A stretch of DNA of 52,774 nucleotides, counting the filler, from Dirinaria sp. TL-2023a (taxonomy: Eukaryota): the NCBI GenBank assembly GCA_051941275.1. It is 2 parts of 2 records of this genome, joined end to end, with 100 filler letters (N's around TTAATTAATTAA, not from the genome) between each part and the next. Parts side by side here need not be neighbours in the genome. Positions count along the whole stretch, not along the records: positions 26,491 to 52,774 come from JAVEBF010000164.1; 1 more part is not named here. One strand, given 5' to 3'. Below the pieces are notes generated by a model, which worked only from the letters and a program-made list of their open reading frames with translations, searched no databases and was not told where the DNA came from. Shown piece by piece: positions 1,936 through 34,385 of the stretch. Made by a program: the position numbers and the translations under genes. How positions within the stretch are numbered: position 1 is the stretch's first letter; each line of letters begins with the position of its first letter.

Positions 1936-3913
1936 TCAGATAGTGTACCGAAATTGGGGATGCCTGTATCCTAGTAGACCTTCATCGCCTTCTGCAAGGC
2001 GATAGTCTCGCTCGCCCCTGGCCCGCTTCCTATTTTCCCATTTGGCATACAGTATCATGGATGTGGATAAGACCAGGGACATGATCAGAAACCCAACGTT
2101 GATCCAGTGACCAGTGATATATTTCGGTCTAGAAAATGAGTGTGAGCTGGTGTTAAAGTCGTGCATCTCTGGTACTTACGCATCCTTCTTAAGGTACGTG
2201 AATGTGGCGATGAACGCTGCGCAGTTGGCGATAGCAATCTGAAATCCTGTCCCTGTTGCTCTTGTATAATGCGGGGCTAAGTTATTAGCCAGCCTAATTT
2301 TGTCGGTCAATCGACATTACAACTTGAACCAGTCTGCCTACCATCCCATAACGGCTGGTGCGCTTGGAAATACACCTTTATGGATGTCAGCAAGGATCGC
2401 GTTGTCAGCTAATGTTTTCTGAACCTACCAGCGGCCACAAAGAAAGTTCCACCGTAATGAACTGATGGTCTTGCGGGAACCAAAAGCAGTATATAGCCTA
2501 TAATAGCGAGTAAGCAGCCACAGATCATTATCGGACCTCGGGCCTTGAGTTTGTCGGAGACGAATCCTGCAATGAACACCGTGAAAAAGGCAGCCATGTT
2601 TGGTGGAACTGTGAGCAACTGGGCTTGAACGCTATCGTAGCCAAGACTGGATATGATAGAGGGAAGAAAAAGAGAGAACGAATATATCCTATCGAAATTT
2701 AGTGACCAGAGTACATATGCAAGAGGAATGCGTACGGTGTGATGATAGCAAAGAAGTTGAGGCTCAATGCGATAGTATTGATGTTCAGCAAGGCCCGTCG
2801 TACCTGAGATCATAGTGAGGGCTGAGGAAATTGCGCAAGATTTGGTTAGAAGTTCTTCATACCCAAAACCAAGAAAAGGTCTCTCCTTCAACCCTCGACG
2901 CTGCAGTAGCACCGTGAGAGTCAAGTTTCATACGATGAGCAGCAGCTAGCTGTTCTTCTGGGCTGAGAAAGTTCGCGTGGCTCGGTGTATGAGGAAGGAA
3001 GAAAATAGTGGTCATGCCGAAAAGGATAGTGATGATCTGCAGTGCTTGGCTTGAGCATGTCCAGCTCAGACGTGGGACGTAACTCACGCCTTCAATGATA
3101 AAAATCCATGGCCAGTCTGAACCGGTGAGCGCGACAACTACATGATGAGTCGCGATGACGCTTACGGTTCAAACCATGATACCTGATTTCTGCGAGTCCC
3201 GTGGCAAGGAGCCCACCGAAAGCACCACTGAGTGGTGCTGCACAGTAGAACATGCCGACGCGGAAAAGCAATTCCTTTCGCCGATAGAACCTGCTCTGTC
3301 AGTCAATGCGCACATCTTCAAGGTTTGTATTTCATACATTGACAAATACAGAATCATTCCCCCCAGCAATCCTCCCTCGGAGAGGCCAAGGAAGAAGCGT
3401 ACTGCCAGAAGGCCGCTGATTTTATCCTTAGTGACTCAGTCCATGAGATCAGCAGAAGACACAGTACCCGTAGCTCTTGACAAAGCCAATGCACATGCCA
3501 CACAAACCCCAGGCAATCATAAGGCCAGGCAAGTAGAAACCGGCGCCGACAGCCTGCTCAGGTCAGGTTCAGTCCTTTGGATAATCTGGGCGAGCCACAG
3601 CGTCTACCTTGATGAACCAATTGCTAGGAACATCGATCAGGATATAGGGGACATAGAAGATGGCGAGGGCGACGTTGAAGTCGTTGCCTGCGCCGTCCAT
3701 GTGCAAATCTTTGGTCAGTCCATCGATGCGAGCATTTCCAATATTGCTTCGATCGATGAAAGCCAACAGCCACAGTCCAAAGAGCCATGGTACGATGTGG
3801 AGGTCGAGTTTCCGGGTGAGACGGCGTTCAAGGGCTGGGTCGAGGTCTGCCAGTTCCCCTTCTTCGCTTTCGTACTTTTCAACCTGGGGGCTTTGGATCT
3901 CTTTCACGTCCAT
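1936..3913 (-). CDS. MFS transporter, anion:cation symporter (Dal5/Tna1) family, multi-intron
   Basis: Spliced motifs typical of the family: ERRLTRKLDLHIVPWLFGLWLLAFIDRSNIGNARIDG, FYVPYILIDVPSN, RFFLGLSEGG, FYCAAPLSGAFGGLLA, WPWIFIIEG, YSFSLFLPSII, AQLLTVPP, C-terminal ENRKR..HPQFRYTI*. About 9-10 short introns. Confidence 0.93.
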
Positions 3914-25900: not shown

Positions 25901-26390
25901 CCTCTCTTCTTTTCATTTATATCTCACTGCATCATTAGTGTTTTCGTTATTGTGCGCAGCGATTCACACGCGAAATCTACAAGAGAATCAAGAGACTTGA
26001 AAACTACATCGCTACTGCCACAGCTGGGGTTCTATAATACAAGTTCGAAGTTTGAAATAAGTTTCAATTTTTGACATAACGCCTCTGAATGTTTGAAGAC
26101 ACTCTTATGTTTTCTGTTACGCGTCGACCATTGAACTGATAATTTTTACACCTTTGGTCGATTATTCTTGTAATTTTGAATCCGCTTTGTCGTGTTTGCC
26201 TTATTATGAGATTGTAATTGATAGTCTCATAGCTTTGTAGCTTAAAAGACAACAATCTTGATCTGAATTTTATCATTGTTCGACAGCATTTTCGTTGAAA
26301 ATACTTGACATAATGAATCGATACAATCTCGACGCGTTGATTTTGAAGATCAGAAAGAAGAAGATCTCCTGATGCTGGTATTTTCAAAAT

Positions 26391-26490
26391 NNNNNNNNNN
26401 NNNNNNNNNNNNNNNNNNNNNNNNNNNNNNNNNNTTAATTAATTAANNNNNNNNNNNNNNNNNNNNNNNNNNNNNNNNNNNNNNNNNNNN
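26391..26490. other. Artificial assembly spacer: N44-TTAATTAATTAA-N44
   Basis: Exactly 100 nt. The central palindromic 12-mer puts stop codons in all six frames, a standard contig-joining linker. Confidence 0.97.
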
Positions 26491-27166
26491 CCTTCCCCCT
26501 CCCTAACAACCTCTTAACATTCAACGATGCACCTATCCCACCTTTCTTTCCCCTTTGCACGATAGATCAGAATTATCATCCTTTTCCCTCATTCAAAATA
26601 ATGATTTATTTTTTGTATTTTTAAAGGGAGAGGGGGAAATGTTTCATACACTGTGAGAGTCTAAAGTTTAGAGCTCAAAGAGTAGATAGTAAGAGGAGGA
26701 TATGGCATGGATATTTACAAGTAGGGAGGGATGGGAGAACAAGGCGTGGGTGGTAAAGTCCTCACTACACTACGCTATATATTTTTTGCGGGTCGATTTT
26801 TTTAGTGCAATCGCGGCTGATCAAGGTGGCAGTAGTGCTTGCGGTCAATACGAGGGATGCTCGCCGTATGGTATCTGATGATACTTAAGGAGATGAAGGG
26901 AAAGGGGCTGTGCTATGCCTACATCGAGGTAAGCGAGATAAGCGAGGTAGGTAAGGTACGAGTCCTCGTACAATTCGGTGAAAAACAGGCCTCAAAACTT
27001 GACGGTAATGGCACTTCATTACCACTGGGGCTTAGGTATGTCTACCGTAATGTATGTAGGTCTACTGAGCGCAGTAGCTTCCCCCTTGGGAGTGCGACAA
27101 TCTCTGTCAATTTGTGGGATAATTGCCTTCATATCTCAAAGACAGTCCTGGTCTCCCAGATGTCTC

Positions 27167-27198
27167 AAAAAAAAAAAAAAAAAAAGAAAAAAAAGAAA
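27167..27198 (+). repeat. Poly(A)-rich tract
   Basis: A19-g-A8-g-aaa. Similar tracts at 29366-29396 and ~29633-29653. Confidence 0.9.
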
Positions 27199-28300
27199 CG
27201 GACGATAGATTCGCAAGACCTGCTCTCACACCTGAACGAAATCTAAGTTCCTATCTTATCTCTGTCGGGTTGTCAATGAAGAAAATGATATTCTCAAATC
27301 TCGAAGGCAGTAGTAGTATGTTAGTCCCAGAGGTCGAGAGACAGCACCGAAACTCACGCTAACCCAGATCCGGGTTTCCGAAGGATCTCTGCTGGATTTT
27401 GGGACAAAAAACCAAAATGATGGCCAAGCGAAAATTTTTGAAGCAGAAAACCCAGCTTGCTAATCATGTAAGATACATCAACACAATTCCTATAAGACAA
27501 AGCAAACTCCAAGATTCGTAATTAATTTATGTATGCATCTAAGATCATGAAAAGCTTGAATTTTTATGGAGCGTTTCTGGGTAAAAGACTGCTTCTAAGT
27601 TAATCCTTTGATATCCTTTTGGTAACATCTTTATCCCACTCACTGCTATCTTTGAAGTAATTCATCTTCCTTTCTTCCAGCTTGACTCAAGCATCTAAGG
27701 TAACAATAACATATACATATTCTTCCTTTTCAGACCATACGTTATTTCCGGAACTACTGTATCATTAATGGCTAAACCATGACGATGATGTGTATGATGA
27801 CTGAGCAGGGCTCGTGTAGCCAATCGCCCAATGTGCTCTATTCTACTTATTGAAGTAGAGTTTGAGCTATCCAAGTTATAATTTTTTTTGGAAAGGAAAC
27901 AAGGAATTATATTCCCGATTTTCGTTCAAACATCAGTCCCTTCCTCGAGTGGAAGAGAGACTTCTTCCCATTGCCTCTTAAAAAAAAAGTCAACCCGTAT
28001 CAACTTGCTCAGTAACTCAAAATAGGTCGCTAGAGACTCGTATCTTCTGTCGAATTGTAACGAAGGAAAGATAATACCTTTCGGCCCAAATAAACTGCAA
28101 TTCCTACGCTGAAAACCGATTGTCAGTCCTGAATGGCAAGGGGCCGCAAGATGAGACGAGAGACGGGACGAAACAGGACTCGAATATCAAACAAGAATGT
28201 TTAACGGATTTCCTGTCGGATTTGTTATAATGAGGAAAATACCTTACTTCAATACTTTCAAATCTCGAAGGCAGTCCCGCGGTACCGTGTTAAAACCAAC

Positions 28301-29353
28301 CTAAGGTAAGGCCAGACCCTACCACTAACCAACCCAATTCAGATTTCCACCACATCTTTGTCAGTTTCCTGTGAAGGAAACCATCACACTTTATTGCGTT
28401 TCAGATCCAAATCGCAGTCCTGGAAGAACTCACCTGACCTAAGGACTACAGGATCCTCATCCTAACCCAATTTCGGATTTTCCCACATCTTTGTTAGTCG
28501 GTTGTGAAGGAAATTTTCATACTTTATTGCCTTTCAGATCCCAACCGCAGTCCTCGGAGATCCACTTACAGAACCCCGACCCCCAACACTAACCAAATCC
28601 AGGTTCCTACCACATCTTTGTCAGTTGATTGTGAAGAAAAACATCATACTTTATTGCGTTTCAGATCCCAATCACAGTCCTAGGAGTCAAAAACCCGGAA
28701 GATAAGGGCTACAGAATCCTCACCCTAACCCAACCTAGGTTCCTACCACATCTTTGTCAGTCTAGAGTGAAGAAAACTTTCACACTTTATTGCGTTTCAG
28801 ATCCCAATCGCAGTCCTTACCTACCGGAACCTAAGGGCTTACAGAACCCGATCCCCAGCACTAACCCAATCTAGGTTCCTACCACATCTTTGTCAGCTCG
28901 TTGTGAAGAAAACCATCATACCTTACCTTATATGATTGCATTTCAGATCCTAATCGCAGTCCCAGAGTCAAAAACCAGAAGAACCAACCTAAGGACTACA
29001 GAACCCTTATCCTAACCCAATCTAGGTTCCTACACATCTTTGTCGGTTCAGTGTGAAGAAAACCATCATACTCTATTGCGTTTCAGATCCCAATCGCAGT
29101 CCCCCGGAAAACCAACCTGACCTAAGGACTACAAGACGCTCACCCTAACCCAATCCAGGTTCCTACCACATCTTTGTCGGCTCGTTGTGAAGAAAACCTT
29201 CATACTTTATTGCATTTCAGATCTCAATCGCAGTCCCCTGAGAACCGACTACCGGAACCTACAGACCCTAACACTAACCCAATCCAGGTTCCCACCGTAT
29301 CTCTGTTGGCTTGTAATCAAGGAAATAATACTTTCAGATCGAGATTGCAGTCC
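28301..29353. repeat. Tandem array of 8 imperfect ~117-146 bp units (non-coding minisatellite)
   Basis: Core ctaacccaatc(c/t)aggttcctaccacatctttgtcag..tgtgaagaaaaccatcatactttattgcgtttcagatcccaatcgcagtcc. Unit ends at about 28420, 28553, 28680, 28816, 28962, 29102, 29236 and 29353. Confidence 0.95.
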
Positions 29354-29799
29354 TTAGCGTGTCCCAAAAAACAAAAAAAAAAAACAAACAAAAAAAGGGT
29401 GTTTCTGAGGTATACAGTACGATAGATGAGCCACCATCATCATCGTCAAGGAAACCCCCATGCTTGATGCCGCAGCTTCCTTTCCGGACTTCAGGGAGCC
29501 CTGATTGATTGATTGATGATCCCTTTGAATTCCTTTTCTGTGATTGAGGGTATTTGCGAATTATGTCTTTGCTGCTACTACGGATGGATGGATATTTTTC
29601 TTATCATCATCAGGTTTCAGCTAAAGAAATTTAAAAAAAAAAAACAAAAAAAAGAAGGATGCGAACGGCCGGCTTTGTGCCCGGCACGTGGATTCTATTT
29701 TTCTATGCTTGGATTTCTTTTTGATTTGTTATACACACGACCCGCCCGATTAGGGACATGGAATTGAATATTATATCGATGATGCAATGACGAATTTTA

Positions 29800-32754
29800 T
29801 CATCCCTCTTCCCAAGCTGGGTTCTGTTTTTTTTTGGTGTCTGTTAGCATCTGCATTTGAGCCAGGGGAGGAAGGGTTGGGCTTTACCTTTCTCAAAATG
29901 ACGAGCCCTTCCAGATTGCTCGCCAAACTGATATACTGCTCATCCTCCAACTCGGCCCTCTCGCCGTACGCAAGCAGCACCGGCGTGCTCTGCGTCTGCC
30001 ACCCCGTGATCGTCTTCGGCCGCCCCGCCTGGCCCACCACATCGACCGCCTGTCCGACCCGTACATTCACTTGCAGAGGCTTAAGATCTTCATCGAGGGT
30101 AACGAGGAATCTGGGATGCATGGCGGTGACTATGAAGTAGAGGAGGTAGTGGGAATCGCTGAGGATGAACTGCTTCGCGTCGATCATGGCCACGAGAACG
30201 GTCAATAAGCCCGCCGCGGCGACTTGCGAGAGGATCTGTCGGTCGGTGTGGAACGGATGGATCGACATCGTGCCTTTACCCATGTGCAGCAGTCCTTGCG
30301 CTATCCGTACCATGAATAGGGAGTTCTGGTCGCGGTGGTAATAGCTCGCAAGCTGCCGAAGTAGTTGTGCAAGCCTTGCGTTGTTCGTGCCGGCGCCGAG
30401 GAGGCCCATGGCGAAGATGGCGTTGATAGCGACGTCGTTATCGTTGTCATGGCTGTATCGGGAGAGTGTATCGTAGACTTTCATTTGCGGGTTGCTGGGG
30501 CTGATGAGACCCATAGCGAGAGGGACTGCCTTTCGGATGTTGGCCTCGCCGTAGTGCATCAAGTGACCGAATTGGCGCAGGACCATCTCTTGACCGACGT
30601 CTTCACCCATAGAAATCAGGGATAGGCCGAGGACAGCGTATGTCTGTAGGAGTTCGTCACCCTTTTTGTCGTCGCCTTCTTCGATGTGGTCGTTGCAGAT
30701 GTGGAGAAGTTCCTGAAGCTTTAAGACTGTTCCGGTTCCGGCCCAAGCACAAACTTCGGCCAAAACTGCTGCTGGTTTCGACATTGGGTGGTCGATGGCT
30801 TTCAAAGTTTCCAATATGACTTCCACCTCCTCTTGGCGGCCAAAGAATAACAAGGCAAGCCCGAGCGACATAAACCGTGTCCACTTGTCTTTCAGCTGCT
30901 TTTGCCGCTCTTCGTCAAGAAGCGTGGTTATGATGGCTTCGCTAACGCGGTCGTTGGAAGACCCAACAAAAATCAGGCCGAGCGAAAGTGCTGCCATCGC
31001 AGATATTTGCATTTCCAGCGATGTATCTTCCACAATTGGTAACAAAAGCTCCAACAGATCCTCCTTATTAGTACCTGCACATGCTAAGCCGAGACCCATA
31101 ATGGAAGCCATCTTGATTTGTACGTTCTTGCTTCCAATAGTGTCTTCACCACTCAACATTGCGAGGGCCGGCTCTGCGTCTATACGGACTCCCGAGTTCA
31201 GGATACCAATGGCCAGGTAAGCCCCTGCCCTAATTTGATCCTCTTGCGCATATGTGAACTTGTCGATTTGGTCCAGACCTGATTCAATATCCCACCGCAA
31301 AAGCATTCCCATCGATGCAACGGTCGACATCATACCGTCGTCCTTGGTCTTCCACACCCAACTTGTCTTCTCCCCTTCCCCACTATTAAGCATCATCTTA
31401 TCATTACCGAAGCCGGCATTTGTAAATCCGTTGACGAAGGCGCTGGCAAGGTTGTGTCTTGCCGAGTCAACATTCGTCAGGCCTGCCGTTCGACTGCTTT
31501 CGAGGTGGCTTTTGTAAATGTCCTCTGGCATCTTCGGGTCCAGTATGTTGAGCTCTTTCCCTAAGGATTTGAAATGATTTGGCAACTTCTCATTACTCAA
31601 GCATTCCATGATAGCTTGATCTTCGTCTGATTCCGATGGGGCCTCCAGCCATATCTGCTGCCTTGAAACGGCCAAAGCCATCTGCTTCTTCAGAGCAACG
31701 TCTGATGTCGACTCAAAATCTTTTCGAATAAGTTCTAAGTCATTGATTCGAATAGCCAGTACCATGGCTTGGGGAAGTTTGTTGTAGGATATGTAGATAT
31801 CATGTGCCGTTTTCAAGAATTGCTGATCTTCAGGGTACGTAAGGAGGTTGACCATGCTGACCATGTACAAGCACACTCGGGCGTACGTGTTCTGATCCAG
31901 CCATTGAGGTATCTCTTCTATCCGTTCAAGCTCGCTTAGAATATCCACTGCATCAGCCTCTGCATTGTGACTGAGGAAGTATGGGACGAGCGTTCGAGCG
32001 AGCTCTATAAGCTCTTGCGTGTCCATGTCTTCGTTCAATCTTCGTTGATAATCCTGGCCGATCTCGAGCGCTAGATGTCGAACATATTCATGACCCCAAG
32101 CGCCCACGTCATCGGTTGGAGCGAGAAGTCGATATTTCAAGGTTTCTAGCTTATCTTCGTCGCCTTGTGTCATACCAAGTACTGAAAGAACGTCGGCCAG
32201 AGCATCCTAGGAAAACTTTAGCGAAAACTCGTTTGTATGCATGGACACAGTACCTTCTCTTTCCCTTTCGACCATTGCTCGTAGCACTCAGTAAGCTCGT
32301 CAAAGTGTGGGCGAAGAAATTTAAGAGGTTTCGGTACAGCGGTCATAGAGGACGTCGAGGTCTTTATGAAGTCTTTAATGGATTCAAGGGCTGGGATATA
32401 GAGGTTGGTGTCAGGTTCCTAAGAGGCGTAGATTTAGCCGATTTACAAATGATCGAGGGGAAAAGATCAAAGGTACTTTTAGTCTCGAAACGAGCATTTC
32501 CAGCTCATGCTTGAGTTGCTGGTCTTCCTCGCTCAACTCCTCTATGGAGACACCCTATCAGCTATTGGACGTTGGCGACTGCTCCTTTACACACCTTCTT
32601 GCGGCTCATCGCCCTTCTTCCCATTTATCGTGAGTTTTGCATCCTGACTAGCTTTTGCTCCATCGCGCTTTTCTTCGCCATCAAGAGACTTCTCATCCAT
32701 GGCCTTGCCTTTGCCTTTCTCTGCAGCAGTCGGCTTGCCATCTTCCTTCGCCAT
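29800..32754 (-). CDS. RPN1: 26S proteasome non-ATPase regulatory subunit Rpn1 (PSMD2); exons 32754-32595, 32541-32477, 32418-32254, 32206-29888, 29823-29800
   Basis: ELSEEDQQLKHELEMLV, KTSTSSMTAVPKPLKFLRPH, WGHEYVRHLALEI, HNAEADAVD, PC repeats, GTNNARLAQLLRQLASYY, VNVRVGQAVDVVGQAGRPKTITGWQTQSTPVLL, VILRK|NPAWEEG*. The ORF track reads through the last intron. Confidence 0.97.
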
Positions 32755-33098
32755 CCTGCCGCTACAGAGCGGTGTCGATCTCAGTCTCGGCCTGGATGAT
32801 CTGTGGCGGGCTGCTGTGAAGATCCTAGGATATATTAAGATTTCTGAGAGCTGCCTCAGCTGTTAGAGGTGTGAACAGCAATATTTGATCACCAATGAAA
32901 GCTTACTGGTTCATGTAATCAACTGTTAGTACGCGCTCCGAAAGCTCAATCGGCCGGAGTGACTTTTTGCCGGGTATTCACAGCCGAGGTCAAGCCGGAG
33001 GGCTCGCACTGCGGAGACTGGATTTATTTCGTGAATTGGTATGCCTGCTTGATCATCTCTACATAAAGTACAGTGCAAGGATCTCTCTACGTCTCAAG

Positions 33099-34385
33099 AT
33101 GAAGCTCGATACGAGGCATCTCCGCTACCTCACTACGGAGGATTGGCGGGTACTGACTGCTGTAAGGTTTCTCTCCGCAACACCACTCAAGACGGTGCGA
33201 GGACTAACAGCTAATAGACCGCTATGCATCTAGGTGGAAATGGGTAGCAAAAACCACGAAGCTGTCCCTACATCACTCATCCTTCAACTTTCAAGCCTCC
33301 GCAGTGGTAGCGGAGCTCATAAGAGTATCTCCACCCTCGCCAAAGCGAATTTGATAGCTCGAGTCAAGAATGCAAAATGTAAATGCAAATCAACTCGATG
33401 ACCTCCTGGTTTCATTGCTGACTACTATTGATTGACTATAGACGACGGATACCGCCTTACCTATGGCGGCCTAGATTACCTAGCCCTACACACCCATCAG
33501 AAGCATTCCAAGATATATTCTGTTGGCAACCAAATCGGTACCGGTAAAGAGTCCGACATCTTCGTGGTTGCCTCTGAATCCGGTCAACAATACGTCCTAA
33601 AGGTTCACCGATTAGGCCGTATCTCCTTTAGGACCGTGAAGTCCAATCGGGACTATCTCCGCCATCGATCCTCTGCTTCTTGGATGTACATGAGCCGGCT
33701 CGCTGCACTGAAGGAATATTCATTCATGGACGCTCTGAAGCAGAGGTGCTTCATGGTGCCGAATCCAATAGCGCAGAATCGACACACGATTGTAATGGAG
33801 TTTATTGATGCATTCCCACTGCGGCAGATCAAGGAGGTACCCAACCCAGGTGGGCTGTATGGGGAGCTGTTGGAGATGATTTTAAAGCTCGCAGGTGTGG
33901 GCATGATTCATGGAGATTTCAATGAATTCAATATCCTCATTAAAGAAGACGAAGTCCATGCTGTGAGACCAAATAATATCTCGGCGCCAGAAGCGGACGA
34001 CCAGTCTTCGCAAAGCGGGACAAAGCTAACACCTTACTTGATTGATTTTCCCCAAATGATATCTATCGACCACGCAAACGCCGAGATGTACTTTGACCGG
34101 GACGTTCAATGCATAAAGCGCTTCTTCGAGCGGCGATTTCACTTCGTCAGTGACGAGCCAGGGCCTTCCTTCGAGGACGCAAGGAAAAGAGCTGAGACGA
34201 ACATCGCAAAGAGGCTGGACGTCGAGGTCGAGGCATCTGGCTTCTCCAAGAAGATGGCAAGGGAGCTCGAGAAGTATATGCAAACGGTCGGTGTAGACGG
34301 TGACCGGGACGAAGTGGAAGGGGATGGAGATGAGCTTAGCAGTAGCTCTTTAACGTCGGAAGCTGGAGACGGTGGAAAAACTTGA
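33099..34385 (+). CDS. RIO2: Atypical protein kinase Rio2 (40S maturation); introns 33162-33233 and 33379-33441
   Basis: MKLDTRHLRYLTTEDWRVLTA|VEMGSKNHE, YDGYRLTYGGLDYLAL, VGNQIGTGKESDI, KVHRLGRISFR, SWMYMSRLAALKE, IHGDFNEFNI, IDFPQMISIDH. Confidence 0.97.

Follow-up and report, generated by a model that had tools for sequence, protein, structure and literature searches.

The DNA analysed here (52,774 nt, referred to as the window throughout) contains, on the minus strand of positions 28278–29236, seven head-to-tail units of 127–146 nt each in which an intron-like cassette recurs. We consider it probable that this locus is a non-coding, partly homogenised and decaying minisatellite near a contig end and that the cassette arose accidentally and was multiplied as the units were copied in tandem. 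The units follow each other head to tail and have diverged, they are non-coding, and mobile-element ends are absent. As it stands, this is an intergenic minisatellite of the ordinary sort and matters little. It does carry a caution: verified donors share only GT(A/G) and verified branch sites only CTRA, chance intron shapes occur in about one quarter of random 136-nt units, and tandem copying makes such a chance stretch look designed.

Layout and decay of the array

The core units are numbered from U1, which begins at 29236 on the side of the RPN1 gene, to U7, which ends at 28278. Each of them was recovered by nhmmer with an E-value between 1e-33 and 1e-39. TRF described the array with a period of 136, 6.7 copies, 72% matches and a score of 747. 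A repeat finder detected seven to eight copies at a spacing of 127–150 nt and, when inverted repeat pairs were sought, returned none. A 25-nt motif representing the cassette matched seven times in the window, each time within the array (0.08 matches expected; none of 100 shuffles reached seven), and neither the motif scan nor nhmmer found a cassette copy elsewhere in the 52.8 kb of the window.

Each core unit comprises a conserved block of approximately 92 nt, with the layout GGACTGCGATTGGGATCTGAAACGCAATAAA-GTATGAnnnTTTTCTTCACnnnnnnCTGACAAAGATGTGGTAG-GAACCTAGATTGGGTTAG, and a variable, indel-rich and G/T-rich tail of approximately 45 nt. Pairwise identity among the core units is 78–93% in the block and 37–81% in the tail. 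The cause of this difference could be constraint acting on the block instead of more rapid slippage in the G/T-rich tail, which would argue against a minisatellite.

On the RPN1 side the core is bordered by a worn unit, U0 (29237–29353, minus strand; nhmmer E = 2.4e-14). In the hmmalign alignment, 12 model positions of the cassette region are missing from U0, and it has CCAAC in place of CTGAC and TGG in place of TAG. At the opposite end two relic units, U8 and U9 (28000–28277, minus strand), show partial homology to the core unit only, as judged by nhmmer (E = 0.12 at 28277–28230), blastn (22/24 for the 5' part) and hmmalign. With the same three programs, three more fragments of relic units were located at 27085–27430 (minus strand), with nhmmer E-values of 7.6e-5 (27288–27227) and 0.18 (27400–27349). 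A blastn comparison of a relic in this region with U0 gave 54/72 identical positions (E = 8e-9). Approximately 570 bp of unrelated sequence separate these fragments from the core array. Taken together, the worn U0 and the relics in both regions point to an old array that spans at least 2.3 kb and is better preserved in its core.

The differences among the core units amount to 40 transitions versus 16 transversions. Relative to the consensus we counted 16 A>G, 13 G>A, 7 C>T and 4 T>C changes. Several variants are common to units that are not adjacent: GTGTGA occurs in U4 and U7, GAAATGCAA and AACGAG in U1 and U3, the tail sequence TTTTTGACTC in U2 and U4, and the tail sequence AGGTCAGGT in U1 and U6. 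This is the mosaic expected from exchange among minisatellite units.

Directly upstream of U0 on the minus strand lies a tract rich in A/T homopolymers (29366–29396; TRF, blastn 32/37). A second tract of this type (27167–27198) precedes a relic unit. The tails of U2 and U4 end in a T5 run (GGTTTTTGACTC), and by eye both tracts look like expanded versions of it. On the plus strand the two tracts are A-rich, and we considered them as poly(A) tails of retroelements. This idea was dropped because each tract is followed by another unit and resembles the T5 run.

We infer the following course of expansion. Replication slippage or unequal exchange would have generated head-to-tail copies of an ancestral unit of approximately 120–136 nt. 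Exchange or conversion would then have partly homogenised the copies in the middle, and the outer units would have decayed.

The array adjoins a gene-free stretch of low GC content. Further down, at positions 26391–26490, two runs of 44 N surround a 12-mer (TTAATTAATTAA) in which every frame contains a stop. The N runs and the 12-mer look like an artificial linker between two contigs. The window accordingly does not represent one uninterrupted chromosomal segment, and the distance from the array to a contig end is 0.6–2.9 kb.

Intron-like cassettes and the introns of the window

The first-pass annotation had listed five cassettes on the minus strand, and on re-reading their coordinates and sequences proved exact throughout. 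The cassette of U1 (29163–29205, 43 nt) reads GTATGA..CCGAC..TAG, with the branch motif off consensus, and that of U2 (29030–29071, 42 nt) has the same signals. The CCGAC variant that had been noted for two copies is thus present in the two core units nearest RPN1. U3 (28879–28921, 43 nt) has GTATGA..CTGAC..TAG. It is preceded by AAGGTAAG, and a 10-nt insert immediately upstream adds AAG|GTAAGG, so that the extra donor reported for this third cassette is indeed there. The cassettes of U4 (28743–28785, GTGTGA..CTGAC..TAG) and U5 (28607–28649, GTATGA..CTGAC..TAG) are again 43 nt long. In the two units of lowest coordinates we likewise saw the loss of TAG that had been described. In U6 (28462–28522, GTATGA..CTAAC, including the CTAAC already noted) the TAG is replaced by GAA and the next AG follows 61 nt from the GT; in U7 (28325–28389, GTGTGA..CTGAC) it is replaced by TGG and the next AG follows 65 nt from the GT. 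In both units this next AG is part of the word GGGTTAG. All seven cassettes and homologues were read directly from the minus strand.

The signals thus vary to different degrees. The donor is GT in 7/7 core units and conforms to GT(A/G)TGA in all of them. The branch motif is CTGAC in 4/7, CTAAC in 1/7 and CCGAC in 2/7 units, and an AG stands at the 42–43-nt position in 5/7 (it is lost in U6 and U7). The full set of donor, CTGAC and TAG is found in three core units (U3, U4 and U5), with the branch A located 14 nt before the AG. In each of the remaining four, the branch motif or the AG is damaged.

No core unit differs from the others in the ten bases that separate the branch A from the AG (ACAAAGATGT). 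In real introns this stretch is not constrained. Much of the 'exon' sequence GGACTGCGATTGGGATCTGAAA is also invariant across the seven units. With these stretches fixed while the branch motif and the TAG vary, conservation tracks the block instead of the splice signals, which are conserved no better than the neighbouring bases. In the relic units, hmmalign places CCGAC, TCGAC, CCAAC or CCAGC at the branch position. From these relics and from the shorter cassette of U0, CTGAC seems to have arisen late, by a C-to-T change at a CpG, and the length of 43 nt likewise seems derived. The intron-like form of the cassette therefore looks recent and accidental.

For comparison with real introns we aligned RNA contigs to positions 27500–33500 at 90% likeness. 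The data comprise four small contig sets with a word share of 0.07–0.14, all derived from a single sample of a single study and labelled as a lichen metagenome. The contigs cover RPN1 and the next gene at 95–99% identity, which indicates that they come from a related strain. RPN1 lies upstream of the array on the same strand and, as covered by these contigs, extends over positions 29599–32883 (minus strand). It shows Pfam matches to RPN1_RPN2_N (8.5e-91), RPN1_C (1.3e-25) and PC_rep (1.6e-23), and the contigs delimit introns at 29824–29887, 32207–32253, 32419–32476 and 32542–32594. The stop codon was read at 29802–29800 from the sequence and a contig joint. Contigs of the RPN1 message end at 29696 (contig sets X1 and X2) and 29599 (X3), upstream of the array, and the furthest end is 246 nt away from the first unit, U0. 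The 3' UTR of RPN1 is therefore at least ~200 nt long and ends at least 246 nt before U0. Contig cover is absent over positions 27500–29598, which bears neither way on expression of the array.

At the first intron of the gene that follows RPN1 (33161–33237, plus strand) two runs of the same sample join differently. X1 skips 33162–33217 (GT..AG, 56 nt) and X2 skips 33165–33236 (AG..TG, 72 nt). The discrepancy may be due to alternative assembly, misassembly or a difference between strains.

Six introns between 27500 and 33500 were confirmed by the contigs of the related strain. They are 47, 53, 56, 58, 63 and 64 nt long. Their donors are GTAAAG, GTACTG, GTACCT, GTGTGT, GTAAGG and GTAAAT, their branch motifs are CTAAC, CTAAA, CTAAA, CTGAT, CTAAC and CTGAC, and they end with CAG or TAG. 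Common to all six are only GT(A/G), CT(A/G)A with its A 10–20 nt before the end, and YAG. A seventh intron was verified in the MFS gene (3337–3291, minus strand, 47 nt, GTATGA..CTGAC..CAG). Its removal fuses two exons in frame (...GGMILYLSM to FYRRKELLFRVGMFY...). GTATGA had been proposed as a real donor at two places in this gene; the proposal holds at 3337, and the donor at ~2862 was not confirmed. The MFS intron shows that near-minimal introns with a GTATGA donor are in use here. The unit and this intron have GTATGA, GATGTG and CTGACA in common, and we considered whether they are related. We treat the likeness as chance, because the words occur in a different order and nhmmer gave no match at the intron.

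With 42–43 nt, the cassettes are 4 nt below the shortest of the seven verified introns (47–64 nt), a weak contrast given the small sample. An ORF-joining screen gave no credible intron below 46 nt, its candidates of 37 and 39 nt being false or doubtful. This screen returned 31 clusters, many of them clearly false, and is used here only to set an approximate minimum for intron length.

The chance rate was estimated with a loose intron pattern (GTR, CTRA with its A 9–21 nt before YAG, and a total length of 40–75 nt). Among 5000 shuffled 136-nt units, 1249 (25%) contained the pattern on a given strand and 1897 on either strand. Outside the array, the window contains 1.3–2.6 occurrences per kb and strand. 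At a chance rate of 25% per strand, a single intron-shaped stretch in the founding unit is unremarkable. Its recurrence follows from tandem copying, and the copies are thus not independent evidence. By chance, the minus strand of the founding unit would have had a GT followed by a CYGAC motif and an AG, as in an intron. Tandem copying would then have multiplied these signals. With signals so short and loose that about a quarter of random units hold them, the cassette would be a by-product of this copying with no selected role in splicing.

We regard it as unlikely that the array is instead transcribed on the minus strand, by read-through from RPN1 or from a start of its own, and that the spliceosome removes the cassettes of at least U3–U5 from an RNA that may or may not have a use. 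The cassettes do have the same orientation as RPN1, the first unit lying 246 nt past the furthest contig end of that gene. The donor core GT.TGA is present in every core unit, GTATGA, CTGAC and YAG are all used in the 47-nt intron of the MFS gene, and the branch A, 14 nt before the AG, falls inside the 10–20 nt seen in the six contig-confirmed introns. The constant GT(A/G)TGA and the use of GTATGA with CTGAC in a real intron also count against a minisatellite, and U6 and U7 could use the AG of GGGTTAG. On the other hand, the branch or AG lesions in 4/7 units, a length under that of any verified intron, signals that do not stand out in conservation, relics that lack them, and the chance rate all argue against splicing. 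If they were shown to be spliced, the cassettes would provide a natural case of introns multiplying outside a gene and of a near-minimal fungal intron, and would bear on how introns originate.

The stronger form of this idea, in which the array is a working multi-intron non-coding transcript with one minimal 43-nt intron per unit, below the shortest verified intron of the window, is the least probable of the readings considered here. The array would then be a stack of ready-made introns, serving either as a source of newly gained introns or, downstream of RPN1, as an RNA that interacts with the spliceosome. Of the interpretations in the first-pass annotation, the tandemly amplified intron-like element agrees with our results, and the multi-intron non-coding transcript co-oriented with RPN1 found no support: full signals are confined to 3/7 units, they are not conserved beyond their surroundings, and the relics are without them.

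Coding capacity, RNA signals and telomere-like words

One 'exon' between cassettes (29162–29072) had been described as having stops in all frames, and this is true of all six inter-cassette pieces. In the spliced minus-strand product the longest open frame has 37 codons. The plus strand of positions 28310–29425 is unusually open, with ORFs of 49–99 aa that run across units in shifting frames, and the minus strand is filled with stops. This openness is probably a by-product of the base composition of the units. A Pfam search with three plus-strand ORFs of the array gave no family, and a search with the 79-aa plus-strand ORF of the core gave no candidate homologue among proteins of 43–139 residues.

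These results bear on a further explanation, namely that the unit is a duplicated piece of a real gene (the end of an exon, a true short intron and the start of the next exon) that was amplified and whose copies are now dead. The match between the cassette signals and those of real introns in the window would suit such an origin. We nevertheless consider it quite improbable. No open frame crosses any unit, a Pfam or homologue signal is absent, and the nhmmer profile of the unit had no significant match in the genes of the window (the best match beyond the locus had E = 1.2). Furthermore, the older relics are less intron-like than the young units, whereas decay from a true intron would predict the opposite.

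Relatives of the array were also sought in metagenome sequences, where the degenerate 25-nt cassette motif occurs at 18 loci. BLAST matches of the units at these loci cover only 15–32 nt and are confined to the motif. Since the similarity stops there, we discarded the 18 loci as chance matches and not relatives. Other genome windows, compared by sequence and by relatives, contained no look-alike.

An Rfam search over positions 26000–32000 at E-values up to 10 gave six weak matches, all of them below the gathering score and none inside the array. A search for tRNAs, or for the head of a SINE, gave no tRNA. The fold stability of the seven units did not differ markedly from that of 200 shuffles each (z from -1.17 to +1.15), so no stable fold was found, and the covariation term of RNAalifold was unfavourable on both strands.

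On the minus strand, GGGTTAG or TGGTTAG occurs in nearly every unit, and in U1 and U4 GGGTTAG continues as GGGTTAGGGT. A second TTAGG is located in the tail of most units, and TTAGG occurs ten times in the 959-nt core. Among 20000 shuffled units, 2.5% had two or more TTAGG and 1.9% had GGGTTAG; these statistics are post hoc. The exact hexamer TTAGGG occurs only twice in the core and GGGTTA five times. The array was rejected as an interstitial telomeric repeat, as there are one or two degenerate words per unit and no run of TTAGGG hexamers. The TTAGG words could stem from an old telomeric tract, serve as a binding site or have arisen by chance.

The conserved 92-nt block could in principle be functional, as a tandem small RNA gene or as an array of protein-binding sites, and its conservation, far better than that of the tail, would be explained by this. 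For a small RNA, the minus-strand words UGAUG, CUGA and a second CUGA resemble the C, D' and D boxes. For a binding site, the telomere-repeat-like GGGTTAG might be recognised, at the margin of the low-GC block, by a Myb protein that binds TTAGGG; almost all units contain this word or TGGTTAG, TTAGG recurs throughout the core, and the array borders the gene-free block. Both forms nevertheless appear very improbable. The C-box-like UGAUG is found in only 4/7 units, the others having UGAAGG, UGAAAG or UGAAAA. No terminal stem was seen by eye, and the flanks AAAGU and AACGC do not pair. The array has neither an Rfam match nor a stable fold or covariation. With regard to protein binding, the full CCCTAA/TTAGGG hexamer occurs just twice in the core, and the statistics of the telomere words are post hoc.

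Comparison with known systems

Clusters of box C/D snoRNAs resemble the array in combining a tandem conserved element of ~90 nt with a variable spacer, and UGAUG and CUGA follow each other in the order C, D', D. The array differs from them in that the C-like box is degenerate in 3/7 units (UGAA(G/A)(G/A)) and in lacking a terminal stem and an Rfam match.

Introner-like elements (ILEs) are known from Dothideomycetes and other fungi (PMC4457414); the words 'lichen' and 'Lecanoromycetes' do not occur in that paper. The cassettes share with ILEs the presence of several near-identical, intron-shaped sequences in one fungal genome. Each ILE makes up a single intron, and the copies are scattered over unrelated genes, whereas the cassettes in the window form one tandem array outside any gene. 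In the original 2012 description, ILEs are reportedly longer than ordinary introns and stably folded. The cassettes, in contrast, are only 42–43 nt long and have no stable fold. The array thus departs from ILEs in dispersal (within the window) as well as in structure.

Multiplication of introns by tandem genomic duplication of an intron-containing segment is a published model (PMC4974935; review, PMC3443670). The array resembles this process in having a short intron-shaped segment with its flanks arranged head to tail, and near-identical GT..AG cassettes at a fixed period. In tandem-duplication intron gain, the repeat is inside a transcribed coding gene whose frame stays open from unit to unit. 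The array, however, has no open frame and lies in no recognisable gene. A case of intron multiplication by tandem duplication is said to have been described in Cryptococcus by Sharpton and colleagues. In a limited literature search we met no report of intron-like cassettes arrayed in tandem outside genes, nor of such arrays in lichen fungi.

Among fungal repeats, Candida glabrata reportedly has compound minisatellites and megasatellites, as described by Thierry and colleagues in 2008. Compared with such minisatellite examples the copy number here is small, with seven good units and relics. In contrast to ordinary minisatellites, the unit has intron-like signals in order and one telomere-like word. 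In its other properties the array is like intergenic minisatellites of fungi: it consists of head-to-tail units of ~130 nt without coding capacity, lies between genes, and shows mosaic variants. The divergence of 7–22% among the core units, with stronger decay at the edges, is that of decayed fungal arrays.
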